Shown: positions 13,661-64,000 of the stretch, in pieces | Layout: each line of letters starts with the position of its first letter | How positions within the stretch are numbered: the first letter of the stretch is position 1 | Assembly: GCA_031800475.1 (NCBI GenBank) | Contig: DAPKRQ010000263.1 | Coordinates: forward strand, 14,547 to 78,546 | From: Myxococcales bacterium LLY-WYZ-16_1 | Lineage (GTDB): Bacteria > Myxococcota > Kuafuiibacteriia > Kuafuiibacteriales > Kuafuiibacteriaceae | DNA length: 64,000 nt | Direction: 5' to 3' | The notes under the pieces: model-generated | What the model was told of the DNA's origin: nothing | The model's input: only the letters and a program-made list of their open reading frames with translations | The model's database searches: none | Translations under genes and position numbers: made by a program

Positions 13661-13798
13661 GGTACCCCGAGCCTATACCCGCCGGGGCCGGCCGGGCCAT
13701 CGGATGATCGGCGGGGTCCTTTTTTCGGCCGCCGGGACCGGGCCCCGACTCAGGGGAAGATGCGGGGACGCGGGCGCGGTAGAGGGTTCGAGCACGCC

Positions 13799-27356: not shown

Positions 27357-27393
27357 CGGACCGGGTGGCGGTAGCAAAACCCAAGGCCGCTGG

Positions 27394-38733: not shown

Positions 38734-38965
38734 ACCGAAGCGCTCGAAGCGACCGAAGCGGTAGAAGGCCCCCGGTAAAATCTGTGGAACAGGGGTGCCG
38801 TCTGGATGGCCCCTGGACTGCACCTCCGTATGGGCAGTCGGGTCCGATCTGCCTCCATGGGGGCCCTCGACCCGGAATCCATTGCGGAGTCCCCAGCTTG
38901 CGGGAATCCGTGCTCGGGCCCGCACCCGATCGCCAAGTCCGGTTCTTTTCGTTCAGCCTCGCCAC

Positions 38966-39775
38966 ATGGTCGCGTTGGGGGGCTGGGCCGTCATGCTCTT
39001 GGCAGGCGCGAGCGTGCCGGGTTCGTCCGAGGCGCCGCCGCCCCCAGCCGACGCCGGTCCGCCCTCGGAGGAATGCGTGGGTTGCCCGCCGCGGTCTGGG
39101 TTTTTCGTTCGCTTCACTGGAAACGGCCTGACCGGTTGGTACGGAGACCCGCTCTACGCCGACGCCGAACGACGGGCCATCTCAGAGTTGGCCTTCGGAG
39201 CGGGCATGGCGTTCGGCCTGCAGATCGACCCCACCTGGAGCATCGCGGTGTTCGGCGACGTGTTGTTCGGAGGCGTGGATACCACGTCGCTCGAAGGCTT
39301 CGCCCAGTTGGCGGACGTGGACAGCCTTCAGGCCAGCGTCGGGCTCAGCGGCCGCATCACCCTGGGGCAAGACCCGGGCTGGCAGCCGGTGCTCGGGGTG
39401 GAGGGGGCGCTGCTGCGACAGTGGGTGTGGTGGCAAAGCGCCGAGGGACGGCCCGTGGCCGTGCTCAGCCCGTACACGGGCCGTCGGGTTGGCACGGTCT
39501 ACCGACCAGAGCTCGAGCTTCGGAGCCAACACGACGGGTGGGCCGTGGGCCCGATCTTGGGTCTGGCCAAGCGCCTGGGCCCGGATGGATATGGACCGAA
39601 GTTCGTGGTCGAAGCGGCCGGCCAGTACCAGCGGTGGTCGCCCGGGAGCACCGACGTGAGCGCCGCGCCCAGCCGCGAAGTGCTGGAGGCCACGGTCCGC
39701 TCCATCGAATCGATTCAGCAAGACGCCGAAGTGTGGAGCGCCACCATCCGGGTGGGCCTGCAGTTCGGGCCGTGA
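38966..39775 (+). CDS. Secreted hypothetical protein (signal peptide; possible beta-rich OM or periplasmic protein)
   Basis: N-terminal signal MVALGGWAVMLLAGASVPGSS. No known motif. Confidence 0.45.
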   Translation: MVALGGWAVMLLAGASVPGSSEAPPPPADAGPPSEECVGCPPRSGFFVRFTGNGLTGWYGDPLYADAERRAISELAFGAGMAFGLQIDPTWSIAVFGDVLFGGVDTTSLEGFAQLADVDSLQASVGLSGRITLGQDPGWQPVLGVEGALLRQWVWWQSAEGRPVAVLSPYTGRRVGTVYRPELELRSQHDGWAVGPILGLAKRLGPDGYGPKFVVEAAGQYQRWSPGSTDVSAAPSREVLEATVRSIESIQQDAEVWSATIRVGLQFGP

Positions 39776-45839: not shown

Positions 45840-46520
45840 TCAAACCGCGTAGGGCGTGGGATCGGAAACGCCGGCTTCGGCGAAACCCTTGCGGCGGAGC
45901 CGGCAGGCGTCACACCGACCGCACGCCCGTCGTTCTCGGGGATCGTAGCAGGATACGGTCGGGGACAGATCGACCCCAAGGCGGGCAGCTTCCCGGACGA
46001 TTTCGGCCTTGGTCCACTGCATCAGGGGGGCGTGCACCCGGAACGGTTGGCCTTCGACCCCCGCTTTGGTCGCCACCTGGGCCAGGCGCTCGAAGGCCTC
46101 GACGAAGGCGGGGCGGCAGTCGGGGTAGCCCGAGTAGTCCAGGGCGTTGGCGCCGAAGAACAAATCTTGGGCACCGACGGTCTCGGCCAATCCCAGGGCC
46201 ACGGCCAGGAACACGGTGTTGCGAGCCGGGACATAGGTGACCGGAATCGCGGTCCCGCCCTCTGGCATGGCCTGGCCCTCCGGCACTTCGATGGCCCGAT
46301 CCGTCAAGGCCGAGCCGCCCACGGCCGAAAGATCCAGCCGAACGATCCGGTGGTCGACGACCCCCTGGGCGGCCGCCACCTCCCGGGCCGCGTCCAGTTC
46401 GACCCGATGGCGCTGGCCGTAGTCGAAAGACAAGCAGCTGACCGAAAACCCCCGCTCCTGGGCAATGCCCAGGGTGGTGGCCGAATCCAGGCCTCCCGAC
46501 AGCAAAACCACGGCCCGCAT
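45840..46520 (-). CDS. queC: 7-cyano-7-deazaguanine synthase
   Basis: PP-loop [13 protein letters not shown] and C-terminal zinc site [16 protein letters not shown]. Confidence 0.9.
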
Positions 46521-46698
46521 GCCGCCATTTTGACACGGCACTCCCCAACTGCCGCGGTCAAAAGCCGCGGCCAGACGCCTTCGACCTCCCCGAAGCCCCC
46601 GCAGAGCTCGACCGCGGAGCGCAGAACGGGAGCCGCGAAGCCCATCGGGCTGGACTCCCTTTCGGTTCCCGGTGTACGTCGCCGTGGTTTCGCCCCGG

Positions 46699-46779
46699 GC
46701 GAGGGTGGCGGAATTGGTAGACGCACTGGATTTAGGTTCCAGCGGGCTTCCCGTGCGGGTTCGAGTCCCGCCTCTCGCA
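46699..46779 (+). tRNA. tRNA-Leu (anticodon TAG), class II with long variable arm
   Basis: Cloverleaf folded by hand. Acceptor stem GCGAGGG / CTCTCGC with a G-U pair and discriminator A. D-arm GCGG...ACGC. Anticodon stem CTGGA/TCCAG with loop TTTAGGT. 12-nt variable arm. T-arm GCGGG TTCGAGT CCCGC. No encoded CCA. Confidence 0.75.
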
Positions 46780-46795
46780 GCGAGTCCCCATACCC

Positions 46796-48112
46796 ATGAA
46801 GATCGAGGTTGAAACCCTGTCCCCTGCCGAACGGAAGGTCCGCGTCGAGGTCCCCTGGGAGACCGTGCGGGCCGAGCTGGACGAAGCCTACCGGGCCCTG
46901 AGCAAGCGGGCCAAGGTACGCGGCTTTCGCCCCGGCAAAGTGCCCCGAAAGGTCCTCGAGCAGATGTACCGGCAGACCGTCGAAGGCGAGGTGCTGCAGC
47001 GGGTCATCGACGACGGCTTCCGGCAGGCGGTGAACCAAAACGACCTCCACCCCATCGACCGGCCTCGGCTCGACGAGGTCCCCGCGCTTCGGGCGGATGA
47101 GCCCCTGAAGTTCGAGGCCCGGGTCGAAGTCAAACCCGAGGTCGAGGCCGAAAACGTGGAGGGCCTGGAGGTCAAAAAGGAGGTCCGGCCCATCGGCGAC
47201 GCCGAAGTGGAAGCGGAGCTCATGAACCTGCGGGAAAAGGCCGTGGTCATCGAGCCGATCACGGATCGACAGGTGGCCCAGGAGGGCGATCTGGCGGTCA
47301 TCGACTTCTTCGGCTACGTCGACGGCGAAACCTTCAAAGGCGGCAAGGGCATCAGCTACACCGTCCACCTGGGCGAAAAGCAGATGATCCCCGGATTCGA
47401 AGAGCAGATCGTCGGCATGTCGATCGGTGACGAGAAGACGTTCGAACTGCCCTTTCCCGAGGGGACCGGACCGGAAGAGGTGCAGGGGAAGGACGTCGAG
47501 TGGAAGGTCGACCTCAAGGAACTCAAGCAGAAGATCTACCCGGACCTGGACGACGAATTCGCCAAGGACCTGGGCGAGTTCGACACGCTGGAGGAGCTGA
47601 AGACCCAGATCCGCGAAAACCTCGCCACCCGCGAAGACGCGAAGCAGCTGCGCTCCCTCAAAGAGTCCGCTCTGAACGCACTGGTCGACGCCAACCCGAT
47701 CACGGTGCCATCGGCCATGGTGGATCGGCAGGTCGACCTGATGCTCCAGGACGCTACCGCATCCCTCCAAAAGAACGCCGACCCCGCGCTGCGCGAAGCA
47801 CTGGAACGGGTCAAGACCGAGATCCGTCCCCAGGCCGAGCGTCGGGTGGCAGGCATGCTTCTGTTGGAAGCCGTGGCCCGGAAAGCGGAGCTGAAGGTGT
47901 CGGAAGAGGAGCTCGAAGGTCGGCTGGGGGAGCTGGCCCGGGAGCATCGGATGCCGGTCCGGCAAGTGCGGCAGCAGCTGCGCTCCAACGACCAGCTGGA
48001 AGGCTTGGAGTACGGCATGCTCCAGGACAAAGCCCTGGATTGGGTGCTGGAGCGGTCCCAGGTTGTGGAGGTCGAGCCAGCCCCCGAGTCCGAGACTCCC
48101 TCGGAAGGTTGA
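46796..48112 (+). CDS. tig: Trigger factor
   Basis: N-terminus [22 protein letters not shown] ... [14 protein letters not shown], and a PPIase-type middle domain. Confidence 0.95.
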
Positions 48113-48186
48113 GCCGACATGCTGCGTCGACCGCCCGTTGGTGAGGGTTCTCTCGGGGTTCCCGCCATCGGTTCGATGGGTCGACG

Positions 48187-48876
48187 ATGGCTGCCAACAC
48201 TGGACCTGGGGCGGAAGAGTGTCCACCATGGTCCAGGCGGAGCGATTCCGCGAGGACAGTCTTGAGTTACCTGGTCCCCACCGTCATCGAACAAACCCAC
48301 CGCGGCGAGCGGGCCTACGACATCTGGTCCCGCCTCATGAAGGATCGGATCGTGTTTCTCGGCACCGAGATCCACGACGACCTGGCCAACGTCATCGTCG
48401 CCCAGCTCCTGTTCCTGGAGTCCGAGGACCCGGAAAAGGACGTGAATCTCTACATCAACAGTCCCGGTGGCTCCGTGTCGGCCGGAATGGCCATCTACGA
48501 CACCATGCAGTACGTCCGGTGCCCGATCACCACGATCTGCATCGGTCAGGCCGCATCCATGGCTGCCGTGATACTGGCCGCTGGGACGAAAGGGCGCCGC
48601 AAGGGCCTGCCGCACTCCCGGATCATGATCCACCAACCGGCGGGCGGAGCCCGAGGTCAGGCGTCGGACATCGAAATCGCCGCCAAAGAGGTCCTGCGCA
48701 GTCGCGACATGCTCAACCGGGTCCTCTCCGAGCACACGGGGAAGCCCCTCGACCAGATCGCCCAGGATTCGGACCGGGACTACTACATGACCGCCGAAGA
48801 AGCCCGAGACTACGGGATCATGGACGACGTGGTGGTCAGCAAGAAGGCCGACGAAGGCTCGTCCGAGCCCGGCTGA
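48187..48876 (+). CDS. clpP: ATP-dependent Clp protease proteolytic subunit
   Basis: [19 protein letters not shown], catalytic [11 protein letters not shown]. An alternative TTG start at 48261 would give the canonical [11 protein letters not shown]-terminus. Confidence 0.9.
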
Positions 48877-53963: not shown

Positions 53964-54515
53964 TCAACCTGGAACCGTCGCCAACACCTCTACCGGAACC
54001 TCCTCGACAAAGGGCGATTCCTCCACGTCGCAGTTCGCATCGAAGGGCACGACCTCGCCTCGGATGATGACGGGTCGAGAAAAGTCGCTGTCGACGAATA
54101 CCCGATTGTTGGGGTCGACGACGAAGCGGCCCGCTTCACACAAGCGCACACGCTGGACCACCCCGCCGACCCGGACCCCGTCGGATGGCCGGAGCACCTC
54201 GAACACGATGCCCCAGGAACCAGCACGGGGGGCGTCGAACTCCATGCCCACGTAAACGTGTTGCCCCGCGCGCTGCACGGGGCTCCCCTTGACGAGCTGC
54301 AGGCTCTGACCGGGTGCCAAAGACTGGGTCCCGTCTCCTTCGCGAGTGAGCAGACGGATCCCTGCCTCTCCATTGAACGGAGTTACAGGTCGACACGTGC
54401 GACCGTCTCCGCAGCCGATGGCTGGGTCGAGTCCATTTTGGTCCGAGCTGCTGTCCGGCGCTTCACCGCCGCACGCGAACAACAGAGTCAACCATCCGAG
54501 CCGAGCCCATTTCAC
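53964..54515 (-). CDS. Hypothetical lipoprotein
   Basis: Signal peptide plus lipobox LLFACG. 183 aa. Confidence 0.45.
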   Translation of the reverse strand: MKWARLGWLTLLFACGGEAPDSSSDQNGLDPAIGCGDGRTCRPVTPFNGEAGIRLLTREGDGTQSLAPGQSLQLVKGSPVQRAGQHVYVGMEFDAPRAGSWGIVFEVLRPSDGVRVGGVVQRVRLCEAGRFVVDPNNRVFVDSDFSRPVIIRGEVVPFDANCDVEESPFVEEVPVEVLATVPG

Positions 54516-54594
54516 GGCGGCGGAGCCTACTCGCAGCCTTTCGGGCGTTCAAGAGCCCGCCTTTTCTCCCCCACCGATCTGTGCGACAAGCCAG

Positions 54595-57500
54595 CCGATG
54601 TCGCACCGCCCGGATCGCGTTCGGAAGCTCTTTGCGGCGGGGCTGACGGTGGCGCTTCACGGATCTTTGGCGTGGGCCCAACCCGCCTCGGATCGTTTGC
54701 CAGCGGAAGCTACACTCCGGTTCGACGCAGAGGGTCCGAGACGGCTGTTGCCACGGGTTCGATTTCACCCGGTGATCGATCCCCTGCCCTCGCTGGCCAT
54801 CACTGGGCTGACCCAGGACGCGAAGGGCTTTCTGTGGGTGGCCACGCAGAATGGCTTGGGGCGGTGGGACGGCCGACAGATGACGGTCTTTCGTGCCCGC
54901 GAGGGCAAGAAGAAGGGAGGCCTGCCCTCCTCGTACGCCAGCGCGATCACCGCCGACGGCGCGGGTGACGTGTGGGTGGGAACCTATGACCGAGGCGTGG
55001 CCCGCTTCTCCTACCGGGACGGAAGCTGGGAGACATGGGACACCGAAGAAAGATTGTCATCCCCGTCCGTCACAGCGCTGCACGCCGACGGAGAAGGACA
55101 AATGTGGGTAGGACACGCCACCGGTACGGTGGACCGGATCTCGGTCGACAGCGGCTCGGTCACGGCAGTCGTCGAGCCCGGTTACATCGATGCCGAGATC
55201 ACTTCGATTCGGTCCACCCAGGACGGATCTGTCTGGCTCGCGTCAAAAGATGGCCTTCATCGTTTCCGGAACGGCGTCCTCGATTCATACCGCCACGACC
55301 CCTTCGTGGAAGGCTCGCTACCGGCCCAGGAACTGAATGATGTCCTCGTGGACGACGGCCGAGTCTGGGTGGCTACGGCGGGCCGGGGCGTCTTCGTGGC
55401 GTCCACGAGGGACATGCGTTTCGAGCGGGTCCGAGAAGGCTCGGAAAACGCCCACGCCCTCGTACTCGAGCGCGGACCCGACGGCTCGGTGTGGGTCGGG
55501 ACCCGAGTGGGTTTGGAGCAGCATCTCCCCGACGGAAGCTTTCAGCGCTATCAGCGCGATGAAAAGGATCCCGCTTCCGAATCCTTCCCCCCTTGGACCA
55601 GCGAGCTTCTGTTCGATGGTCGAGGCATCCTATGGCTCGCGGGGTTCGGACACGGCCTGCGCAAGCTGGACTTCCATGAAAGCCAGTTTGGGCCATTGCA
55701 CCTCGACCGGCTCACGTCGCCCGTCTTCGCCGAAGAGACTCCGGGCACGGTCTGGATTGGAACACCTACACGCGGCCTCTATCGGGTCGATTTTGAGGGT
55801 GACCAGGTCCGGCGGTACCCAACCTTTCGGGTGGGAGGGAGGACGAGAAGGCTTCTCGGCACGTGGATCACCGCCGTCCACCACAGCTCGCGCATCCGCC
55901 TGCCGGGCCGACGCCAGCCATCGAACCCGGCGGGCAATGTATTCATTTCGACCGAAGCCCACGGTATCCTGGGCCTCGATGCCGGCACCGGCACGGGCCG
56001 GGCCATTCCCGTGGACGTGGTCGAAGAGGGCCTCTTCGACACCCTCCGAGTCGACGACTTCGTAGAGTCCGGCGGAATGCTCTTCGCCGCCTCCTGGGGC
56101 GGAGGTCTGCTGCGTTACGTTCCCGAGCGGGGCCACTTCGAGCGGGTCCCGGTCGAGTTGCCGAGCCCTTACCTGTACGACCTGGAGGTAGCCCCGGACG
56201 GCCGATTGTGGGTGGGTATGGCCGAAGGCGGCGTGGCGTCGATCCGACCGGACCCCCTCGAGCTGACCGTGCCCGACGCGGTGAATGCGAGTCTTCCCGA
56301 TCGAAACGTCACTTCCGTGCGGGTCGAAGACGGACGACTGTGGATGGGTACCTTTGGCGGGGGATTGGTCCGGTGGGATCCCCGCTCTGGGGACCTCAAC
56401 AGCTGGGGCATGGAGGAAGGCCTGCCGAGCGACACCGTGTTTTCGGCGCTCCGGGGAGATGACGGCGCCCTGTGGGCGTCGACCCCTAGAGGACTGGTTC
56501 GAACCCGCGTCGAACCCGATGCCAGCCTGGGACCGACGCGGATTTTGGGTCTGGCGGACGGACTGCAGGGCGACGAGTTCAACCAGAGCACGCATCTCGC
56601 CGGATCCGACGGCCATCTGTACTTCGGCGGGACCCGGGGCGGACATCGCTTCAGACCCTCGGACCTCGAGTGGCCGGACCATCGGCCCCAGGTTCACGTG
56701 ATGGATTTCTCGATCTTTCAAGAGTCGGTGCCTCTCGAGGAGCCGGTGTGGACCCATCCTCCCGTCCACCTCGGTTATCGCGACTCGGTCTTTTCATTCG
56801 AATTCGTGGCGCCGTATGGAGGCAATCCGAACCGACTTACCTACGCCTATCGCCTCGCCGGACTGAGCGGTTCCTGGATCGAGAGCGACCGAACCTTCGC
56901 CACATTCACGAGCCTTCCCGGCGGCAACTACAACTTCCAGGTTCGTGCCCGGATCGACGGCGGAACCTGGTCGGAACCCACGACGATTCCGATTCGGGTG
57001 GATCGCCCCCCTTGGCTGCGATGGTGGGCCTTTGTCATCTACGGAGCCATCGGGGCTTTGGTGGCTCTCGCGTTCCTGCGACGCCAGCGCGCCAAGCTTC
57101 GAGCGATGCAGCAGGCCCACCGCCTTCAGACGGTGGAGCGCGAACTGGAGCTGACCAGTGCGGTGCAGACCGGTTTTTTGCCCACGGAAGACCGATTCGA
57201 CGACGGTCGGGTTCGGCTGCAGGGCTACTATCGACCGGCGGACCAATGCTCCGGCGACTGGTGGTACTTCGAAGACGATTCGGACCAAACCTTGTCGGTC
57301 TTGGTGGGCGACGTGACCGGGCACGGTCCCGGGCCGGCCATGGTGACAGCCGCAGCTGCCACCGCATTCCGCGTAAGCCGGTCGGGCGACCCCTTGGCTC
57401 AGCGACTGGGTGCAGTCCATTCCGAGGTCCAGTCCGTGGCCCGCGGCAAATACCACATGACGATGACAGCCGTGCAGGTTGACAAGCGGACCGGCGCGTT

Positions 57501-57873
57501 CCGTCTTTTCAGTGCTGCGGGTATGCCGGTCGTCATCGTCAAGAGGGAGGGACGGCCAAAGACCGTGACATGCCGAGGCGTCCCACTGGGCTTCGATGGC
57601 TTCGAGATCGCCTGGACCGACGGACAGTTGGATCCTCACGATCGGCTGGTTCTCTTCACCGACGGAATTCCCGAGCTCGAGACACCAAAAGGTCGCCTGC
57701 TGGGTGTACGAGGCTTTTCACGGTGGTTCGAAGGCGCCCGGGGCGACTCGCTGGAAGGGGTGGTGCGGCACGTGGTGGGCCGAGCAGAGCAGATGCTGAA
57801 CGGCGCGGCTCAAGAAGACGACTGGACCTTTGCCATCGTCGAGTACGTTCCTTCGGAACCCGCAGCTCGCTGA
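54595..57873 (+). CDS. Membrane sensor phosphatase: periplasmic two-component-regulator-propeller repeats plus Y_Y_Y domain, one TM helix, cytoplasmic PP2C/SpoIIE-type Ser/Thr phosphatase
   Basis: Signal peptide (KLFAAGLTVALHGSLAWA). Many W/G-rich propeller repeats (GLGRWDG, VWVGTYDRGVARF, MWVGHATGTV ...). YAYRLAGLSGSWIESDRTFATFTSLPGGNYNFQVRA. TM WWAFVIYGAIGALVALAFL. PP2C motifs SGDWWYF, LVGDVTGHG, LFTDGIPE. Confidence 0.75.
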   Translation, partial: PMSHRPDRVRKLFAAGLTVALHGSLAWAQPASDRLPAEATLRFDAEGPRRLLPRVRFHPVIDPLPSLAITGLTQDAKGFLWVATQNGLGRWDGRQMTVFRAREGKKKGGLPSSYASAITADGAGDVWVGTYDRGVARFSYRDGSWETWDTEERLSSPSVTALHADGEGQMWVGHATGTVDRISVDSGSVTAVVEPGYIDAEITSIRSTQDGSVWLASKDGLHRFRNGVLDSYRHDPFVEGSLPAQELNDVLVDDGRVWVATAGRGVFVASTRDMRFERVREGSENAHALVLERGPDGSVWVGTRVGLEQHLPDGSFQRYQRDEKDPASESFPPWTSELLFDGRGILWLAGFGHGLRKLDFHESQFGPLHLDRLTSPVFAEETPGTVWIGTPTRGLYRVDFEGDQVRRYPTFRVGGRTRRLLGTWITAVHHSSRIRLPGRRQPSNPAGNVFISTEAHGILGLDAGTGTGRAIPVDVVEEGLFDTLRVDDFVESGGMLFAASWGGGLLRYVPERGHFERVPVELPSPYLYDLEVAPDGRLWVGMAEGGVASIRPDPLELTVPDAVNASLPDRNVTSVRVEDGRLWMGTFGGGLVRWDPRSGDLNSWGMEEGLPSDTVFSALRGDDGALWASTPRGLVRTRVEPDASLGPTRILGLADGLQGDEFNQSTHLAGSDGHLYFGGTRGGHRFRPSDLEWPDHRPQVHVMDFSIFQESVPLEEPVWTHPPVHLGYRDSVFSFEFVAPYGGNPNRLTYAYRLAGLSGSWIESDRTFATFTSLPGGNYNFQVRARIDGGTWSEPTTIPIRVDRPPWLRWWAFVIYGAIGALVALAFLRRQRAKLRAMQQAHRLQTVERELELTSAVQTGFLPTEDRFDDGRVRLQGYYRPADQCSGDWWYFEDDSDQTLSVLVGDVTGHGPGPAMVTAAAATAFRVSRSGDPLAQRLGAVHSEVQSVARGKYHMTMTAVQVDKRTGAFRLFSAAGMPVVIVKREGRPKTVTCRGVPLGFDGFEIAWTDGQLDPHDRLVLFTDGIPELETPKGRLLGVRGFSRWFEGARGDSLEGVVRHVVGRAEQMLNGAAQEDDWTFAIVEYVPSEPAAR

Positions 57874-57883
57874 GCGACGCCGT

Positions 57884-58672
57884 TCAGACGAACGCAGGAC
57901 GCATGTTTCCCAGCGTGAGTCCGCCATCCACGACGATGGCCTGACCGGTCACGTATCGGGCTCCCTCACCGAGAAGAAACTCGATCACCCGGGCTACGTC
58001 GTCTGCCCTGCCGACCCTTCCTAGGGGCACGAAGGGCTCGATCCGTGCCAACCGTTCGGCGCTTCCAGCCTGGTCGGGAGCGGTGGACTGAGCCGTGGTG
58101 ATGAAGCCGGGTGCCACGGCATTGACGCGAACCCCGTCGCCGCCGAGTTCGATGGCCAAGGACCGGACCAGCCCCTCGATGGCCCCTTTCGACGCCGCAT
58201 AGTGTCCGTGTCCGGACCAGCCCCAACGAGGGCCCATGATCGAGGATACCGCCACCACCGCGCCCCCGCTGGCCCTAAGTGCAGACTCCGCCCCTCGGAC
58301 GGCGTGCAGAACTCCACCGAAGTTCACATCCATGACCCGGAGCCAAGCATCCCGGCGCAGCTCACCCAAAATCCGCCGGTTCGCGATGCCAGCGTTCGCG
58401 ACCAGGCCAGTCAAACCCTCGACCGCCGTCAGCTCCCGAATCCGTTCCTCGAACCGCTCGGCCTCGGACACGTCTGCCACCAGGACCTCCACGTCGTGCC
58501 GAACCCCTTCGGCTCGCAGGGTGTCTCGAAGTTCGATCAGGGGGCCCTCCTCGACATCATTGGCCACCACCCGATGCCCTCCGCGGGCCAACGAAGCGAC
58601 GGTGGCCCAGCCGATACCCGAGGGCGATCCAGCCCCCGTAACGAGAACTCGTGAAGGGCTTTCGTCTCGATC
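57884..58672 (-). CDS. Short-chain dehydrogenase/reductase (SDR) family oxidoreductase
   Basis: VLVTGAGSPSGIGWAT cofactor motif, NAGI, catalytic Y...K (YAASKGA). GTG start inferred. The longer ORF would overlap the divergent P450 gene. Confidence 0.75.
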   Translation of the reverse strand, partial: DRDESPSRVLVTGAGSPSGIGWATVASLARGGHRVVANDVEEGPLIELRDTLRAEGVRHDVEVLVADVSEAERFEERIRELTAVEGLTGLVANAGIANRRILGELRRDAWLRVMDVNFGGVLHAVRGAESALRASGGAVVAVSSIMGPRWGWSGHGHYAASKGAIEGLVRSLAIELGGDGVRVNAVAPGFITTAQSTAPDQAGSAERLARIEPFVPLGRVGRADDVARVIEFLLGEGARYVTGQAIVVDGGLTLGNMRPAFV

Positions 58673-58684
58673 CACCGGGCCCTT

Positions 58685-59956
58685 TTGACATCGACTCGGG
58701 GCCGTCTTCAATATCCCTGCATGGTCTTCGACGACCTGGTAGCGCGCTCCGACTTCTTGGCGGACCCATACCCGACGTACCACCGCATGCGGAGCGAAGC
58801 CCCGATCTTCTACAGTGAGCGCTGGGGAGGGTGGGTACTCACGAGGCACCGCGACGTGGTCGAAACCAAACGAGATCACCAGCGATTTTCGAACGGTGGC
58901 CGCTTCGCTGCATTCATTCGAAAGCTACCCGAAGCAGCCGACGGCACGCTCACGCCGTTGTTCGAGGCCTTCGACACCGGGATCATCCACCGGGATCCTC
59001 CGAAGCACGCGGAGCTTCGTCGCATCGTCATGAAGGCCTTCAACCCCAGGGCCATGCGGGCTCTGTCGGACTTCATCGAAGACTGGACCGACCGCGCCCT
59101 GGCGACCGCGGAAGAGCGGGGGGAGTTCGACATGGTGGCCGACCTGGCAGAGCCCCTTCCCTGCACGGTCGTAGCAAAATTGGTGGGTGTGGCCCCCCAG
59201 ATGCAGGGGCGTTTCAAGGCGTGGGCCGACGACATCACGGGCTTTTTGGTCACGCCGGATTCCGAAACCACGCGGCGGGCCCTCGGGAGCGTCCTGGACG
59301 CTCGTGCGTGGCTCACGGAGCTCATCGAAGCCCGTCGCCGCTTTCCCGAAAACGACCTGATCTCCGCCTTCGCCAACGAAGACCTCCAAGGCATTCGCAT
59401 GTCTACCGATGACGTGCTCTCCACAGCTCGTACATTCATGGTGGCAGGACACGGAACGACCACCTCTTTGCTCGCCGTGGGCACCCTGGCACTCCTGCAG
59501 CACCCCAAAGCCATGATCCGGCTCCGAAGGCTCCTCGATACCACCGACCCGGCGGTGAAGAAGGCTGCACTGCGCAGGGCCATCGAAGAGATGATGCGTT
59601 TTGAAAGCCCCCTTCAGCGGGATCTTCGGATCTGCGCTCGTGACCTGGAGTTTCGGGGGCAGCCCATGAAGGCGGGAGATCTGGTGGTGCAGGTCCTGGG
59701 CGCGGCCCATCGAGACCCGAAAGTCTTCGAGCGACCGGACGCGTTCGATCCCGAGCGGAGCTCCAACCGCCACCTGGCATTCGGCGTTGGCATTCACGCG
59801 TGCATCGGCGCCACCTTGGCGCGTTTGGAGGCGGAGATCGTGTTCGAGAAGCTACTCTGTAGATTTCGCCACATCGAGTTGGTAGAGCCGGACATCGATT
59901 GGGAGAGAAGCGTGGTGCGTCTTCCAAAGCGTCTTCGGCTGCGTGTCCGGGCCTGA
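58685..59956 (+). CDS. Cytochrome P450
   Basis: Heme-binding loop FGVGIHACIGATLA, EXXR (EEMMRFESP) and I-helix AGHGTTT. The start may be the internal Met at 58721. Confidence 0.85.
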   Translation: MTSTRGRLQYPCMVFDDLVARSDFLADPYPTYHRMRSEAPIFYSERWGGWVLTRHRDVVETKRDHQRFSNGGRFAAFIRKLPEAADGTLTPLFEAFDTGIIHRDPPKHAELRRIVMKAFNPRAMRALSDFIEDWTDRALATAEERGEFDMVADLAEPLPCTVVAKLVGVAPQMQGRFKAWADDITGFLVTPDSETTRRALGSVLDARAWLTELIEARRRFPENDLISAFANEDLQGIRMSTDDVLSTARTFMVAGHGTTTSLLAVGTLALLQHPKAMIRLRRLLDTTDPAVKKAALRRAIEEMMRFESPLQRDLRICARDLEFRGQPMKAGDLVVQVLGAAHRDPKVFERPDAFDPERSSNRHLAFGVGIHACIGATLARLEAEIVFEKLLCRFRHIELVEPDIDWERSVVRLPKRLRLRVRA

Positions 59957-60191: not shown

Positions 60192-61151
60192 ATGCGTATC
60201 CAGTTTTTGAATCGAATCACCATGGCGCTCGTGCTCGGCGCCGCAGCCTGCGGGGACGACGACACGAGCAACGCCAACGGAAGCAACAGCGGAGTTCACG
60301 GCGGCAACGGCAATGACCAAGTGGGTTTCACTTCTCCCGAGGGCGGCGAGGTCCGCTGGGAGTTCATGGACTTTGGCGGAGGCGTGGAAGCCGTTCGTCT
60401 CACGGCGTTCTTCAAAGCGGCCCAGGACCCAGACTTCATTCCGTTCGTGCCCGAGGGTGAATGCACCGAGATCACCGACTCCAACCCGCTGTGGCCGCTC
60501 GAGCCATCCGACCCCTCGAACACGACCTATTACAACGTCGGTAACCTCCGGGTCGGTGGCATGCCGCAAGCGACCGAAGTGCAGCCGATCATCGGGGGCC
60601 AGCCCGATCCCTTCTTCCGTTCGCACGATGTCTATTACTTCACGTTCCTGTCGAACATCGACCTGGCGACCGGAATGGACACGGGCATCGACATTTCGGA
60701 GCTGATCGCCCCAGCCCGCACCTACAACGTGGAAGTGGAGGGCAACGCCGACTACGCGCCCTGGCGGATCAACGCAGAGCTGCGCATTCCCGGGCGCTAC
60801 CCGGTGCCCGACGCGATGGACACCGCGAACATGGAGATTCAGGCCGGGCAGGACCTGCCGCTTCCGTTCAACGATGAAGACGACGGCTTCAACGACCCGG
60901 TGATCCCGTTCGTCGTCATCGCGAACTCTGCCCAGGAAACCACTCACGTCTGTCTCGGCAACCCCGACGAGGACACAGTCGTTGTCGATGCCGCCACGAC
61001 CCAGAACATGCCGGACGAAGGCTTCTTGCTCCATGCGACCTCGATCCACCGAGTGGTTCCATTGCCCGACGAGAACGGCGAGGACACCGATCGTCGACTC
61101 GACCTGCTGGGCCTGTGGTGCTACCTGCGCCCGTTCACCAAGGTGCAGTGA
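60192..61151 (+). CDS. Hypothetical lipoprotein in a locally lower-GC island
   Basis: Lipobox LGAAACG. Preceded by a 235-bp AT-richer intergenic region with a GGAAGGAAG RBS. No known motif. Confidence 0.5.
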   Translation: MRIQFLNRITMALVLGAAACGDDDTSNANGSNSGVHGGNGNDQVGFTSPEGGEVRWEFMDFGGGVEAVRLTAFFKAAQDPDFIPFVPEGECTEITDSNPLWPLEPSDPSNTTYYNVGNLRVGGMPQATEVQPIIGGQPDPFFRSHDVYYFTFLSNIDLATGMDTGIDISELIAPARTYNVEVEGNADYAPWRINAELRIPGRYPVPDAMDTANMEIQAGQDLPLPFNDEDDGFNDPVIPFVVIANSAQETTHVCLGNPDEDTVVVDAATTQNMPDEGFLLHATSIHRVVPLPDENGEDTDRRLDLLGLWCYLRPFTKVQ

Positions 61152-61261: not shown

Positions 61262-61633
61262 ATGGGTCGCATCTTCATCGCCCTGAGCACCATGCTCGCC
61301 ATGGCCTGCGGACCGGGCGGCGACACGAACAACGACTGCACCGGGGGCTTTTCGGGAGTACTCCTCGAAGAGTCGGGGGAAGAGGCCGGGTACTTTTCGG
61401 CTTTTCTCACTTTTGCCGACCCTGGTGAGACGAGCGAGCTACGCAGCGGGTTCTTCTTTTTGGAAGAATCTGATGAGATCCCGTCCACCATGACCGTCTC
61501 GGATGACGGCCAGATCATGCCGCAGAGCGGCAGGGTACAACTGACCGGGGTCCTGGAAACAGACGACTGCACGGCGTCGGGCCAGTGGACCGCCCTCGGC
61601 CGGTCCGGAACCTTCACGGCGGAAAAGCAATGA
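61262..61633 (+). CDS. Small hypothetical lipoprotein
   Basis: Lipobox LAMACG. 123 aa. Its stop overlaps the next start (ATGA). Confidence 0.4.
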   Translation: MGRIFIALSTMLAMACGPGGDTNNDCTGGFSGVLLEESGEEAGYFSAFLTFADPGETSELRSGFFFLEESDEIPSTMTVSDDGQIMPQSGRVQLTGVLETDDCTASGQWTALGRSGTFTAEKQ

Positions 61634-62556
61634 TGGCCAAGACTCGAACCCTCCTCCTATCCTTCCTGCTCGCCGGCTTGGCGATGACGGCGGCCTCGCC
61701 GGCTTTCGGTCAGGCTTGGGTCGGCGAAACCAACAGTCTGAGCCTCGGGGTCCAGTACACACTGGCGCCCTCGAACGAGATCGTTGAAGAAGAAGGTCTA
61801 AGCATCGGCAACACGGATCTGCTGGCCCAGATCGTGACGCTTTCCGCCGACTACGTCACCCCGATCCCCCGACTGGCAGTGCGGCTGCAGCTTCCGTTGG
61901 TCATCGTCGAGTATCAGGGCACGGACACCCCCGGTCTGGAGCGCCATGGTAGCCTGGACGATGGAAGCCTCCACCTGGTTCCGACAGACCTGCGGCTCGA
62001 CGTGCGATATGGAGTCCTGGTCGACCCCTTCGCCTTGGCTGTCAACTTGGGTGGCAGCCTCCCCACGCACGATTACGAGACCCAAGGATTCGCAGCACCG
62101 GGGCGCGGGATCGCGAAGTTCCATCTGGGAGCCTCGGTCGGTCGCACGCTCGAGCCCCTGCTGGACGAGCTTTTTTTCCAGGTGGGTTACGAGCTGACCC
62201 TCGGCGAAAACTTCTCGACCTCTGCACCGGAGACGTCCGAAATCTCGCAGCACTATTCGGACGTTTCGGCGACCATCGGATACTTCATCTTGCCGCAGCT
62301 TCCGGTGACCGTGGACTTCGACTACCACGTCCAGCACGACGGGATACGCTTTCTCGAATTCGGTGATTTGTCCTCGCCCCTTCAAGATTTTCACGATGCG
62401 CTCCTGCTCGAAGAGGTTGTGCTATTCGGTGGAAGCCTATCCTACTTCTTCGGAGAACGGCTGGCGGTTACCGGATTCGGGCGCGCATTCGTCGGCGGCG
62501 CGAACACCCGGAACCAGTACATCCTCGGCGCAAACTTCGACATTCGCGTCTTCTGA
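61630..62556 (+). CDS. Putative outer-membrane beta-barrel protein
   Basis: Signal peptide (TLLLSFLLAGLAMTAASPAFGQA). Alternating amphipathic strands. C-terminal NFDIRVF. Confidence 0.5.
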   Translation: MMAKTRTLLLSFLLAGLAMTAASPAFGQAWVGETNSLSLGVQYTLAPSNEIVEEEGLSIGNTDLLAQIVTLSADYVTPIPRLAVRLQLPLVIVEYQGTDTPGLERHGSLDDGSLHLVPTDLRLDVRYGVLVDPFALAVNLGGSLPTHDYETQGFAAPGRGIAKFHLGASVGRTLEPLLDELFFQVGYELTLGENFSTSAPETSEISQHYSDVSATIGYFILPQLPVTVDFDYHVQHDGIRFLEFGDLSSPLQDFHDALLLEEVVLFGGSLSYFFGERLAVTGFGRAFVGGANTRNQYILGANFDIRVF

Positions 62557-62617: not shown

Positions 62618-63121
62618 TTGCACGTGACCCAAATCTCGGTAACGCCGGAACTTCTGGTCCGGACCATCGTAGAGAACGGGGTGACCCACGTTCCCTATCT
62701 TCCGGACATCGAGCACGACAGCACGTATCAGCTCATGTCCCGGGCGCCGTCCTTGACGATGATTCCCGTATCTCGCGAGGGCGAGACGATGGCGGTCGCG
62801 GCCGGGCTCATCGTGGGAGGCAAAAAGCCCCTGATCGTCATTCAAAATACCGGAATGTTCGAGTCCGGAGATTCGATCCGAGGATTCGGCCACTACGCTC
62901 GGATCCCGTTCGTCATGATGGTGGGATACCGAGGCTGGGATCCGGCGGGCCATCCGAAGGATTCGGCTGCGGTGTACACTGAGCCTGTACTCGAAGCCTG
63001 GGGGATCCGCTCGTTCCCGATTCTCGAGGACGCCGACCTGAGCCGGATTGCGGCGGCCTATTCCACCGCGACCGAGACCGGGAAGCCCACGGCCATTCTC
63101 CTGCCGGAGGAAACCAAGTGA
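62618..63121 (+). CDS. Thiamine-diphosphate decarboxylase, alpha subunit (TPP-enzyme N-terminal domain; sulfopyruvate/phosphonopyruvate-decarboxylase ComD-like)
   Basis: 167 aa with the TPP_enzyme_N pattern (VSREGETMAVAAGLIVGGKKPLIVIQNTGMFESGD ... VGYRGW). Its stop overlaps the beta-subunit start. Confidence 0.6.
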   Translation: MHVTQISVTPELLVRTIVENGVTHVPYLPDIEHDSTYQLMSRAPSLTMIPVSREGETMAVAAGLIVGGKKPLIVIQNTGMFESGDSIRGFGHYARIPFVMMVGYRGWDPAGHPKDSAAVYTEPVLEAWGIRSFPILEDADLSRIAAAYSTATETGKPTAILLPEETK

Positions 63122-63699
63122 TCCGAGTTTCCGAGTTGTTCGCTCGCTTCGAATCCCGCCGGGATGGCGCCATCGTCATTCCATGCCAGACCGCTCGCCA
63201 GCCCTGGTTCGACGTGAGCCGCGAGCCGGACTTGGACGTGCACTTTCGGGGTTGCATGGGCAAAGGCTCGTCGCTGGGGCTGGGCCTGGCTATGGCTCGC
63301 CCCGAGCGGCCGGTTTGGGTGTTCGACGGGGACGGAAGCCTTCTGATGAACCTGGGGACAATGGCCACCATCGTCGCGCAGGCTCCGCCCAACTACTCCC
63401 TGTTCGTCCTCGAGAACGGAGTCTACGCCGGAACCGGAGGGCAGCCGGTTCCCGCTCGCGACAAGTTGTCCTTCGAGGGGCTGGCTCGAGCCGCTGGTTT
63501 CGAGCGCACTTTCACCGCCGACACCATCCAGCAGGTCGACCAGAACCTGGATGCTTGGCTCCAATGGACCGGACCGGTATTCGGAGCTTTTCGGACCGAG
63601 ATCGTGCCCGGTGGCAATCGCCTTCGGGACCAGCTGCCTCATCTTTGGGATTGCCTCGGCCGGCTTCGCTCCCGCCTGGCCCATCCACCAGCTTCTTGA
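63118..63699 (+). CDS. Thiamine-diphosphate decarboxylase, beta subunit (TPP-binding domain; ComE-like)
   Basis: ThDP-binding GDG...N motif: VFDGDGSLLMNLGTMATIVAQAPPNYSLFVLENGVYAGTGGQ. Confidence 0.65.
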   Translation: MIRVSELFARFESRRDGAIVIPCQTARQPWFDVSREPDLDVHFRGCMGKGSSLGLGLAMARPERPVWVFDGDGSLLMNLGTMATIVAQAPPNYSLFVLENGVYAGTGGQPVPARDKLSFEGLARAAGFERTFTADTIQQVDQNLDAWLQWTGPVFGAFRTEIVPGGNRLRDQLPHLWDCLGRLRSRLAHPPAS

Positions 63700-63718
63700 A
63701 CGAGAATCCGGAGAATGG

Positions 63719-64000
63719 TCATGAGTGCACGAACGCTCTTCGACAAAGTTTGGGAACAGCACGAGGTCACCCGCCGGGAGGATGGGACCACGCTGCTCTA
63801 CATCGACCGGCATTTCCTCCATGAAGGATCGTTTCATGCCTTTGCCGCGCTACAGATGGCTCAAAGGACCGTACGCCGCCCCGACGCGACATTCGCTTGC
63901 GCGGATCACTACGTTCCCACCCAGAACCAGCGGAAAGGTCTGGAGGGCATCGAGAACGCCGAGATTCGCAACATGGTGCGCCTGCTTCACGAGCACACCG
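63719..64000 (+). CDS. Aconitase-family dehydratase large subunit (3-isopropylmalate dehydratase LeuC / homoaconitase-like), 3'-truncated by the window end
   Basis: N-terminus TLFDKVWEQHEV...TLLYIDRHFLHEGSFHAF matches the LeuC pattern TLYEKLWDAHVV...LLYIDRHLVHEVTSPQAF. Confidence 0.7.

Follow-up and report, generated by a model that had tools for sequence, protein, structure and literature searches.

Introduction

Thiamine-diphosphate (ThDP) decarboxylases of the sulfopyruvate/phosphonopyruvate type assembled from two separately encoded subunits have been characterised in two systems only, the sulfopyruvate decarboxylase ComDE of coenzyme M synthesis in Methanocaldococcus jannaschii and the phosphonopyruvate decarboxylase RhiEF of Bacillus subtilis ATCC 6633, which is the sole solved split enzyme of the family. 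Here we analyse a relative of these enzymes at the end of a 64,000-nucleotide stretch of DNA from Myxococcales bacterium LLY-WYZ-16_1 (GenBank assembly GCA_031800475.1, contig DAPKRQ010000263.1, positions 14,547 to 78,546), hereafter the window. The gene layout firmly supports a single operon of ten tightly packed genes headed by the split ThDP enzyme, and this operon probably encodes enzymes by which 2-oxo acids that carry an anionic substituent are lengthened, decarboxylated, extended by an aldol step and aminated. That substituent is most likely a sulfonate. Our favoured reading, to which we give a probability of roughly 0.45, is a specialised pathway that would homologate and/or decarboxylate sulfopyruvate-type keto acids and aminate the aldehyde.

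Nature offers few sulfonates, and what is known of how they are made concerns chiefly coenzyme M, sulfolipids, capnine and taurine. Sulfopyruvate is the sulfonate analogue of oxaloacetate. The FrbC/FrbA/FrbB(E) enzymes of FR-900098 and the Pms/Pmi enzymes of phosphinothricin add one carbon to a three-carbon keto acid with an anionic beta-substituent, using a synthase, an aconitase-family isomerase and an isocitrate-dehydrogenase-family enzyme in series. The locus described here has a similar series of enzyme types; it differs in that the Frb and Pms/Pmi systems act on phosphonates and occur in actinomycetes, whereas here the isomerase is a LeuCD-type heterodimer and the context points to a sulfonate or carboxylate. 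The rhizocticin cluster, whose RhiG is reportedly treated in Borisova et al. 2010, unites a split decarboxylase with a 4-hydroxy-2-oxovalerate-aldolase homolog and an aminotransferase, so that an aldehyde is extended with pyruvate and then aminated. The same three types of enzyme occur together in our operon.

Results

The split ThDP decarboxylase

The split gene pair is genuine and lies far above chance expectation. The alpha stop and the beta start share 4 nt (GTGA), and this overlap, together with a Shine-Dalgarno-like motif ahead of the beta start (Table 1), indicates that the two subunits are translationally coupled. The Pfam domains are divided between them in the manner of a split architecture, TPP_enzyme_N matching alpha only (E=1.4e-5; 25.3 bits, which narrowly misses the gathering score of 26.8) and TPP_enzyme_C matching beta only (E=1.2e-16), and beta carries the GDG...N motif of ThDP enzymes. 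Third-position GC content (GC3) is 75-77%, in keeping with coding sequence, in a window of 66.6% GC. A preliminary description of the window had reported two subunits with overlapping stop and start, the N-domain in alpha, the GDG...N motif in beta and a LeuC-like gene immediately behind them, and each of these elements is found in place. Gene callers favour a GTG at 62624 as the alpha start, which gives a protein of 165 aa; since they take this later start, an exact look-up of the longer alpha protein found no matching record.

The same description had called the enzyme ComD/ComE-like, which holds for the family and fails for the equivalog. The top NCBIfam match of alpha is the ComD model TIGR03845 (E=5.7e-18; 65.3 bits, equivalog cut-off 147.95), the phosphonopyruvate decarboxylase (Ppd) model TIGR03297 giving 42 bits (cut-off 312.5), and beta scores equally on the ComE model TIGR03846 (100.5 bits, cut-off 221.5) and on Ppd (100.1 bits, cut-off 312.5). 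All of these scores are far under the equivalog cut-offs, those for ComD and ComE being less than half of them, and "ComDE-like" is therefore valid at the family level only. The best solved relative of beta, and its top match in the Protein Data Bank (PDB), is RhiF of RhiEF (9iz3), at 55.7 bits.

The likeness to ComDE extends to the order of the genes, with the PYR-domain subunit preceding the PP-domain subunit, to the shared family of hidden Markov models, to a GDG...N motif in the second subunit and possibly to the gene neighbourhood, where a ComC-like dehydrogenase gene adjoins the operon and, in a sister lineage only, comA-comB genes adjoin the cluster. The present pair differs in being bacterial, in sharing its operon with genes for homologation, an aldolase, a BioD-like protein and a transaminase, and in having no comAB genes in sight nearby. 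Unlike ComDE, it may act on a keto acid one carbon longer.

Beta has more than 6000 relatives, just one of which exceeds 56% identity. Three of the closest, which we placed in their genomic contexts (P0002, P0018 and P0113), are stand-alone pairs with uninformative neighbours. With the nearest relatives outside the cluster found as stand-alone pairs in unrelated contexts, membership of this family cannot fix the substrate of the decarboxylase. One relative has a different subunit composition: on contig L003 (8785-10579) a single alpha gene is accompanied by two tandem beta genes, beside genes for MFS transporters and for a luciferase-like enzyme that belongs to the alkanesulfonate-monooxygenase superfamily.

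Layout of the operon

The window stops before the end of the cluster, as the preliminary description had recognised, and we read the region beyond it from a public 26-kb contig, L001, found by an exact look-up of the beta protein. L001 shares 10,883 bases with the window, disagrees with it at 6 of them, extends about 7.5 kb past the window end, and supplies the rest of leuC and seven more genes. Five further contigs belong to the same organism (microbial-mat metagenomes, a JGI contig of 96 kb and the NCBI metagenome-assembled genome (MAG) GCA_964345465.1). On L001 the order is alpha, beta, LeuC (467 aa), LeuD (217 aa), an Iso_dh-family dehydrogenase (373 aa), a synthase with HMGL-like and HCS_D2 domains (395 aa), a second HMGL-like protein (609 aa) that we call the aldolase fusion, a Glyoxalase/VOC protein (123 aa), an AAA_26/BioD-like protein (243 aa) and a class III aminotransferase (Aminotran_3; 437 aa). 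All ten genes lie on the same strand with intergenic spacing of -4 to 27 nt. A scan for promoters and terminators inside the operon gave no signal above shuffled expectation, and an Rfam scan upstream of it found no riboswitch. The ComC-like gene, of the Ldh_2 family, is convergent to the operon and ends 20 nt past its last gene.

The homologation module

The LeuC-type gene is interrupted by the window end; its N-terminal 93 aa already match the Aconitase family of Pfam (E=2e-10) and LeuC models (E ~1e-22), and the full gene (L001, 10604-12007) reaches 674 bits on TIGR00170, above the cut-off of 560.25. LeuD likewise passes, with 203.7 bits on TIGR00171 (cut-off 116.25). The LeuC cysteines sit in the contexts CGDSH, GSCTNS and GCSMCLG, which we take to be the iron-sulfur ligand motifs of the aconitase family. 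We judged the specificity loop of LeuD (the YLRT/YLVM-type site), which here reads FLRK, to be uninformative, because ordinary bacterial LeuDs carry basic residues there too, presumably including those of E. coli, B. subtilis and M. tuberculosis.

Behind leuC, and within the same tight operon, come a leuD-like gene, a beta-decarboxylating dehydrogenase and a synthase resembling isopropylmalate synthase (IPMS) and homocitrate synthase (HCS), the leuD-like gene and the synthase being of a kind that the preliminary description had led one to look for downstream. What follows is not the standard leuD-leuB set. The dehydrogenase reaches only 199.4 bits on the LeuB model TIGR00169 (cut-off 353.2). 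Its best models are of the archaeal LEU3/AksF types, also under cut-off (256 bits on AksF2, where the cut-off of the AksF/homoisocitrate dehydrogenase (HICDH) model is 540), and its best solved relative is the HICDH of T. thermophilus (217 bits), with the isopropylmalate dehydrogenases (IPMDHs) at about 172 bits. In HICDH, Arg85 reads the distal carboxylate of the substrate, and substituting it gives isopropylmalate activity. The dehydrogenase sequence LRYIRY aligns with IRYLRR of HICDH (1x0l/3asj) and keeps the Arg85-Tyr86 pair, which is conserved in the sister contig L120 as well; the variant 3ah3, which we take to be an engineered form active on isopropylmalate, reads IMALRR at the same site. 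The Arg-Tyr pair therefore argues that the dehydrogenase expects an anionic side chain and not an isopropyl group. It also disfavours a branched aldehyde or alcohol as the product, one of the options raised previously, since an IPMDH would have hydrophobic residues there.

The synthase has the HMGL-like and HCS_D2 domains only and no C-terminal leucine-binding regulatory domain. It scores 255-275 bits on the LeuA equivalogs (cut-offs 532-599) and 345.6 bits on the homocitrate synthase model TIGR02660 (cut-off 462.9), and reaches the cut-off of none of the IPMS, citramalate or homocitrate models; among solved structures it is closest to the homocitrate synthase of S. acidocaldarius (229 bits). 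In an alignment with 6ktq and 3ivs, a His is replaced by Leu (...aaLcR) and an Arg by Ser (...aSfAvED). These two residues are presumably those that bind the C5 carboxylate of 2-oxoglutarate in the HCS structures of T. thermophilus and S. pombe, and their replacement implies that the synthase is not a homocitrate synthase acting on 2-oxoglutarate. An extension of 2-oxoglutarate to 2-oxosuberate, leading to pimelate and biotin, which we had considered as a candidate, is weakened by the same loss.

These comparisons bear on the simplest alternative, that ordinary housekeeping genes for leucine (or citramalate/isoleucine) happen to stand next to an unrelated decarboxylase. LeuC and LeuD do exceed their equivalog cut-offs, and to that extent the earlier view that this is not a canonical leucine operon applies to the dehydrogenase and the synthase and not to the LeuCD pair. 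The dehydrogenase fails LeuB, the synthase fails LeuA, and the dehydrogenase keeps an anion-reading Arg-Tyr pair where hydrophobic residues would be expected; moreover, the four genes stay joined to the decarboxylase, aldolase, VOC, BioD-paralog and aminotransferase genes, with stop/start overlaps, in two lineages and despite reshuffling. We regard the housekeeping explanation as very improbable, and the view that the operon would serve something other than leucine biosynthesis is firmly supported.

The systems nearest to the dehydrogenase and synthase are AksA/AksDE/AksF, which elongates 2-oxoacids for coenzyme B, and LysS/LysTU/Hicdh of the alpha-aminoadipate route to lysine. The dehydrogenase resembles theirs in its closeness to the T. 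thermophilus HICDH, its Arg85-Tyr86 pair and its AksF2 score, and the synthase in having an archaeal homocitrate synthase as its best solved relative. The module differs from these systems in the missing distal-carboxylate His and Arg of the synthase, in its LeuCD pair, which is of the bacterial LeuCD type and not of the HacAB/LysTU type, and in the absence of LysW/LysX-type genes.

The aldolase fusion and the phosphonate alternative

The 609-aa fusion matches the 4-hydroxy-2-oxovalerate aldolase subfamily over residues 5-349 with 221 bits, just under the cut-off of 229. The C-terminal 260-300 aa of the family are conserved, and nothing beyond a generic alpha/beta fold can be assigned to them; in the present protein this region, of about 260 aa, is an extra relative to RhiG. 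More distant members of the same family, of 637-657 aa, occur in secondary-metabolite contexts: on the P0208 contig the aldolase fusion has a nonribosomal peptide synthetase and a VOC protein as neighbours, together with a full-length ThDP enzyme and an aminotransferase, and on contig L121 (4496-6409) it occurs with an AMP-ligase, proteins resembling RraA and NicX, an MBOAT protein and a methyltransferase.

With its RhiEF-like decarboxylase, FrbC/FrbA/FrbB-like trio and RhiG-like aldolase, the operon could be taken to encode a phosphonate pathway, one of the products proposed in the preliminary description. The tie of beta between the Ppd and ComE models (100 bits each), the position of RhiF as its best solved relative, and the pairing of a split decarboxylase with a 4-hydroxy-2-oxovalerate-aldolase homolog, as in the rhizocticin genes, are all consistent with this idea. 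The RhiF match is nevertheless only 56 bits, the aminotransferase is of class III and nearest to a taurine enzyme, and the sister lineage has comA-comB instead. A phosphoenolpyruvate (PEP) mutase is also lacking from what was searched: the EDKx5NS motif occurs in no frame of the 64-kb window or L001, and no PEP-mutase-type Pfam family is listed for the called genes of the related loci inspected or of the 10 kb downstream, where a pepM gene had been envisaged. Because no PEP-mutase motif was found, we consider a phosphonate product highly unlikely.

A BioD paralog and a taurine-aminotransferase-like enzyme

The last two genes of the operon recall BioA-BioD: a BioD-fold P-loop protein and a class III aminotransferase, adjacent and translationally coupled. 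They stand in the order BioD-like, then aminotransferase, and the resemblance weakens in each protein. The BioD-like protein is 36-46% identical to BioD proteins of genuine bioB-bioA-bioD-bioF operons and reaches 65.4 bits on TIGR00347, short of the cut-off of 83.3. We aligned it with E. coli BioD, metagenomic relatives, including P0130 from a bioB-bioA-bioD-bioF operon, and the cluster-linked proteins of L085 and L109; that of L122 was left out. Lys37 and the (L)VEGAGG motif are kept. In the cluster-linked proteins the P-loop GTxT becomes GTGM or GTSI (GTGM in ours), with loss of Thr11; KPxE(S/T)G becomes KAVE(A/G)W (ours KAVEAW), L109 retaining KPVETE; DRLGxINH, which we take to be the loop of E. 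coli BioD that binds the carboxylate of diaminopelargonic acid (DAPA), becomes DHxQG.. (ours DHIQGSTLA); and a C-terminal extension is gained. The L122 protein reads KAIEPWCD and GDHSHE, and its P-loop differs again (GATGRDTGKT). The cluster-linked proteins, most of which read KA(V/I)ExWCD, are always linked with the same omega-aminotransferase, VOC protein and aldolase fusion. Judged by these residues, they form a subfamily of BioD paralogs whose substrate site has been remodelled and in which BioD chemistry may be reused outside biotin synthesis.

The best PDB match of the aminotransferase is taurine:2-oxoglutarate aminotransferase (Toa; 6jix, 264 bits, E=1.7e-77), with gamma-aminobutyrate (GABA) transaminases at about 193 bits and a BioA-annotated structure at 189 bits. 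Its best model is PRK06062 (417 bits, cut-off 472). It fails the BioA model TIGR00508 (207.9 bits, cut-off 405) and shares about 30% identity with the genuine BioA of a bioBADF operon, and the cluster-linked aminotransferases of four lineages are 45-52% identical to one another. We had considered genuine biotin genes and rejected them on the low identity and score of the aminotransferase and the missing key residues of the BioD-like protein.

The best model of the convergent Ldh_2 protein is L-sulfolactate dehydrogenase (238 bits, cut-off 500). A metagenome scan with this protein returned 80 loci, all at 59% identity or less, and none carried another gene of the cluster, from which it follows that Ldh_2 is not cluster-specific.

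Conservation of the cluster and its neighbours

Three contigs of one sister lineage, L004, L085 (a MAG labelled Deltaproteobacteria) and L120, carry the same ten genes, 48-66% identical to ours, and two secreted-protein genes upstream; the alpha subunit is 61-62% identical to its counterpart there. The order has been reshuffled, reading on L004 alpha, beta, BioD-like, aminotransferase, LeuC, LeuD, dehydrogenase, synthase, aldolase fusion, VOC. L004 beta is 48% identical to ours, and its cluster is preceded by two secreted-protein homologs and a SpoIIE/Y_Y_Y regulator homolog. In all three contigs comB-comA directly adjoin the cluster; in L085 and L120 they are part of a packed operon convergent to it that encodes a gamma-glutamyltranspeptidase (GGT), an ATP-grasp ligase resembling glutathionylspermidine (GSP) synthetase, an ELFV dehydrogenase distantly like glutamate dehydrogenase, ComA and ComB. 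This composition suggests that a sulfonated amino acid is ligated or transferred to a gamma-glutamyl-type partner.

The L122/L123 lineage has the split decarboxylase, aldolase fusion, VOC protein, BioD paralog and aminotransferase and lacks the leuCD/dehydrogenase/synthase module. Next to these genes L122 encodes two adenylosuccinate-lyase-family proteins, each at about 430 bits on the model of XcbD of bacterial coenzyme M synthesis (cut-off 600); an ELFV dehydrogenase and a reductase of the ProA type are encoded there too. The core recurs in part in the Nannocystineae MAG L109 (aldolase fusion, VOC protein, BioD paralog and aminotransferase), with an HpcH/HpaI aldolase, a PanE/ApbA-like reductase, an Aldedh-family protein, an FAD oxidoreductase and LutABC as neighbours. 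The split ThDP enzyme, aldolase fusion, VOC protein, BioD paralog and omega-aminotransferase are thus a mobile functional unit, and the homologation genes are an accessory module common to this organism and the sister lineage. The elongation and decarboxylation of 2-oxo acids proposed in the preliminary description is the natural interpretation of this arrangement, which is conserved in another lineage; it falls short in that the aldolase, VOC protein, BioD paralog and aminotransferase add further steps.

The joint presence of Com-type genes and an Aks-like trio raises the possibility of a bacterial cofactor or thiol akin to coenzymes M and B, in which ComABC and a ComDE-like enzyme would yield sulfoacetaldehyde and an Aks-like elongation would follow as in methanogens. 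The 256 bits of the dehydrogenase on AksF2, the GSP-synthetase-like and gamma-glutamyltranspeptidase genes within the sister comAB operon, and the XcbD-like lyases of L122 would fit such a product. However, the LeuCD pair is of the bacterial LeuCD type and not HacAB, no thiol-insertion gene was recognised, the hosts are Myxococcota-like aerobes with no known use of coenzyme M or coenzyme B, and all scores are far under their cut-offs, so that we give this explanation little credence.

In the window the cluster is preceded by three genes for predicted secreted proteins, none of which matches a Pfam or NCBIfam family. Homologs of the first, a predicted lipoprotein, occupy the equivalent place in L004 and L085 (38% identity); those of the third lie upstream of the cluster in L004 and L085 (47-48%) and at the edge of L109 (35%). 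The third is possibly an outer-membrane beta-barrel, to judge from its C-terminal Phe and alternating pattern alone. A Y_Y_Y/Reg_prop and SpoIIE phosphatase protein is encoded farther upstream, as it is in the sister lineage (L004 3756-7085; at the start of L120), and is separated from the cluster here by SDR and P450 genes (Table 1). Downstream of the operon and Ldh_2 follow unrelated genes of housekeeping type: EthD, a second VOC protein, CTP synthase, a methyltransferase, a tail-specific protease and ArgG.

Elsewhere in the window, a 1457-aa protein (31636-36009, plus strand) combines an NAD_binding_4/Sterile (fatty-acyl reductase) domain with AMP-binding, PP-binding and PlsC-type acyltransferase domains, an architecture that we take to resemble the myxobacterial ether-lipid protein ElbD and that serves as a taxonomic hint of Myxococcota. 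The closest cluster relatives are MAGs labelled Deltaproteobacteria and Nannocystineae, and the window is likely to be of Myxococcota-like origin. An alpha-2-macroglobulin gene (1838 aa) slightly overlaps a gene for a PBP1C-type transglycosylase/transpeptidase (782 aa; together 13760-21588, plus strand), presumably the classic periplasmic defence pairing. Two GH57-family proteins are encoded at 1055-3460 (plus strand) and 27394-28899 (minus strand), one of them with DUF3536, and the long open reading frames (ORFs) at 25770-27446, 46304-48229 and 38795-39775 match no Pfam family.

Table 1. Coordinates of the operon genes, their flanks and the related genes on other contigs (aa, amino acids; nt, nucleotides).
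Feature	Sequence	Position	Strand	Remarks
Y_Y_Y/Reg_prop + SpoIIE phosphatase protein	window	54346-57873	+	1091 aa as called; longest ORF 1175 aa
SDR	window	57884-58570	-	between SpoIIE gene and cluster; absent from relatives' loci
P450	window	58685-59956		between SpoIIE gene and cluster; absent from relatives' loci
Predicted lipoprotein, 319 aa	window	60192-61151	+	signal peptide to ...LGAAAC; lipobox by eye; leads the group of three secreted-protein genes
Small predicted lipoprotein, 123 aa	window	61262-61633	+	...LAMAC; stop overlaps next start by 4 nt
Secreted protein, 308 aa	window	61630-62556	+	Sec signal; C-terminal ...IRVF; directly upstream of operon
Alpha (PYR-domain) subunit, ComD/RhiE type	window	62618-63121	+	TTG start, 167 aa; ORF and family matches
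Shine-Dalgarno-like GGAGGA	window	63106-63111	+	6 nt ahead of beta GTG; seen in raw sequence
Beta (PP-domain) subunit, ComE/RhiF type	window	63118-63699	+	GTG start, 193 aa
ThDP motif GDG(71)-x26-N(100) of beta, GDGSLLMNLGTMATIVAQAPPNYSLFVLEN	window	63328-63417	+	beta aa 71-100
LeuC-type aconitase-family large subunit, 5' 93 codons	window	63721-64000	+	ATG, 21 nt past beta stop; truncated by window end
BioD paralog	L001	17216-17947		243 aa
BioD paralog	L120	3582-4313		
BioD paralog	L109	8879-9620	-	
BioD paralog	L122	6242-6946	-	
GGT-to-comB operon	L120	12238-17730	-	
GGT-to-comB operon	L085	13350-18992	-	
Adenylosuccinate-lyase-family protein, XcbD-like	L122	2079-3599	+	
Adenylosuccinate-lyase-family protein, XcbD-like	L122	4839-6224	-	
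ProA-type acyl-phosphate reductase	L122	7501-8763	+	above ProA cut-off

Discussion

The question on which the interpretation of this operon turns is the nature of the anionic group. We favour a sulfonate because comA-comB lie beside the cluster in the sister lineage, because the adjacent dehydrogenase gene is ComC-like and the aminotransferase Toa-like, because L122 has XcbD-like lyases, because the only characterised split relatives of the decarboxylase act on sulfopyruvate or phosphonopyruvate, and because there is a precedent in misaugamycin, for which a cassette of ComA and a glyoxalase was proposed as the source of the sulfoacetyl unit (PMC9136965). The sulfonate option of the preliminary description thereby gains support, all of it indirect. 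Several observations weigh on the other side. The 64-kb window and the 10 kb that follow the cluster yielded neither comA nor comB, and tblastn searches of the window and the downstream loci with ComA, ComB, the ELFV dehydrogenase, the GSP-synthetase-like protein and GGT gave no matches; the physical link to sulfolactate synthesis is confined to one sister lineage. The ComD, ComE, ComC and XcbD scores are all far under curated cut-offs. No Com genes surround the nearest relatives of beta (47-56% identity), which occur as stand-alone alpha/beta pairs, and the Ldh_2 family is widespread, with relatives of 55-59% identity in the 80 soil contigs. The synthase lacks the distal-carboxylate His and Arg of HCS and has no obvious cationic replacement for them, and the group read by the Arg-Tyr pair of the dehydrogenase could equally well be a carboxylate.

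This last point leads to the carboxylate version of the pathway, in which the operon would act on dicarboxylic keto acids of the oxaloacetate, 2-oxoglutarate or 2-oxoadipate type, by a private elongation like that of the tricarboxylic acid (TCA) cycle or of alpha-aminoadipate and coenzyme B. Decarboxylation would give malonate, succinate or a longer semialdehyde, and amination beta-alanine, GABA or an omega-amino acid; the aldolase would make a C7-type 4-hydroxy-2-oxo-dioate, and the product would be an amino or diamino acid that lacks a sulfonate and may carry a cyclic urea installed by the BioD paralog, such as an analogue of pantothenate, GABA or dethiobiotin. HpcH/HpaI aldolases usually take pyruvate and succinate semialdehyde as substrates, and such an aldolase lies near the L109 cluster together with a PanE/ApbA reductase; L122 has a ProA-type reductase. 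It is with the Arg-Tyr pair that (homo)isocitrate dehydrogenase recognises the distal carboxylate, the aminotransferase is also GABA-transaminase-like (193 bits), comAB were not found around the cluster in this organism (window and 10 kb downstream), and the BioD paralog retains 36-46% identity to genuine BioD. On the other hand, the synthase has Leu and Ser where homocitrate synthases bind the C5 carboxylate, no known split enzyme of the ComDE/Ppd type uses dicarboxylic keto acids, the BioD paralog is without the P-loop Thr and has DAPA-binding loops altered with respect to E. coli BioD, and the recurrence of comA-comB, ComC-like and XcbD-like genes by the cluster in different lineages is left unexplained. 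On balance we think the carboxylate version somewhat unlikely.

For the sulfonate pathway that we favour, the following chemistry can be proposed; we infer all of its substrates from sequence and gene context. PEP and sulfite would be joined by ComA and ComB to give sulfolactate, which the adjacent ComC-like Ldh_2 protein would oxidise to sulfopyruvate. The synthase, LeuCD and the dehydrogenase would then carry out a TCA-like one-carbon addition that turns sulfopyruvate into 2-oxo-4-sulfobutanoate, paralleling the conversion of oxaloacetate into 2-oxoglutarate and the action of FrbC/FrbA/FrbB on phosphonopyruvate. Sulfopyruvate or its homologue would be converted by the split decarboxylase into sulfoacetaldehyde or 3-sulfopropanal, and the Toa-like transaminase would turn the aldehyde into taurine or a homotaurine-type amine. 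The aldolase fusion may add pyruvate to the aldehyde in the manner of RhiG of the rhizocticin pathway, and the BioD paralog may provide ATP-dependent activation of a carbamate or acyl phosphate for ring closure or ligation. The VOC protein may serve as an isomerase or a protective enzyme, and the three secreted proteins may handle transport at the outer membrane.

A bolder form of this scheme is that the locus represents the first 2-oxoacid elongation of a sulfonate. Sulfopyruvate would be extended to 2-oxo-4-sulfobutanoate, the analogue of 2-oxoglutarate, which would be decarboxylated and aminated to a homotaurine-type amine, and a BioD paralog blind to DAPA would build a ureido, carbamate or amide link unrelated to biotin. 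The outcome would be a new class of sulfonated metabolite, acting as an osmolyte, an antimetabolite or a cofactor, in uncultured Myxococcota of marine habitats or microbial mats. Taken with all of its parts, this proposal is a speculative one that we consider unlikely to hold in full.

Each enzyme family in the operon is known, and the pathway follows a logic already seen in the routes to coenzyme B, FR-900098, rhizocticin and coenzyme M. Full-text literature searches found no account of sulfopyruvate homologation, of a bacterial homotaurine/homocysteate pathway of this kind, or of this combination of genes. The most interesting elements are the product and the re-purposed BioD paralog. Should the substrates be ordinary dicarboxylic acids, the locus would merely be an uncharacterised operon for amino-acid or secondary metabolism.

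If the sulfonate pathway is correct, it would constitute a new organosulfur route that unites a split decarboxylase, a TCA-like homologation, a RhiG-like aldolase, a taurine-type transaminase and a re-purposed BioD paralog, and the cluster would be a new type of biosynthetic gene cluster for uncultured Myxococcota. It would also give the stand-alone split ThDP family its first functional context beyond methanogens and rhizocticin, and would mean that BioD chemistry has been put to use outside biotin synthesis.

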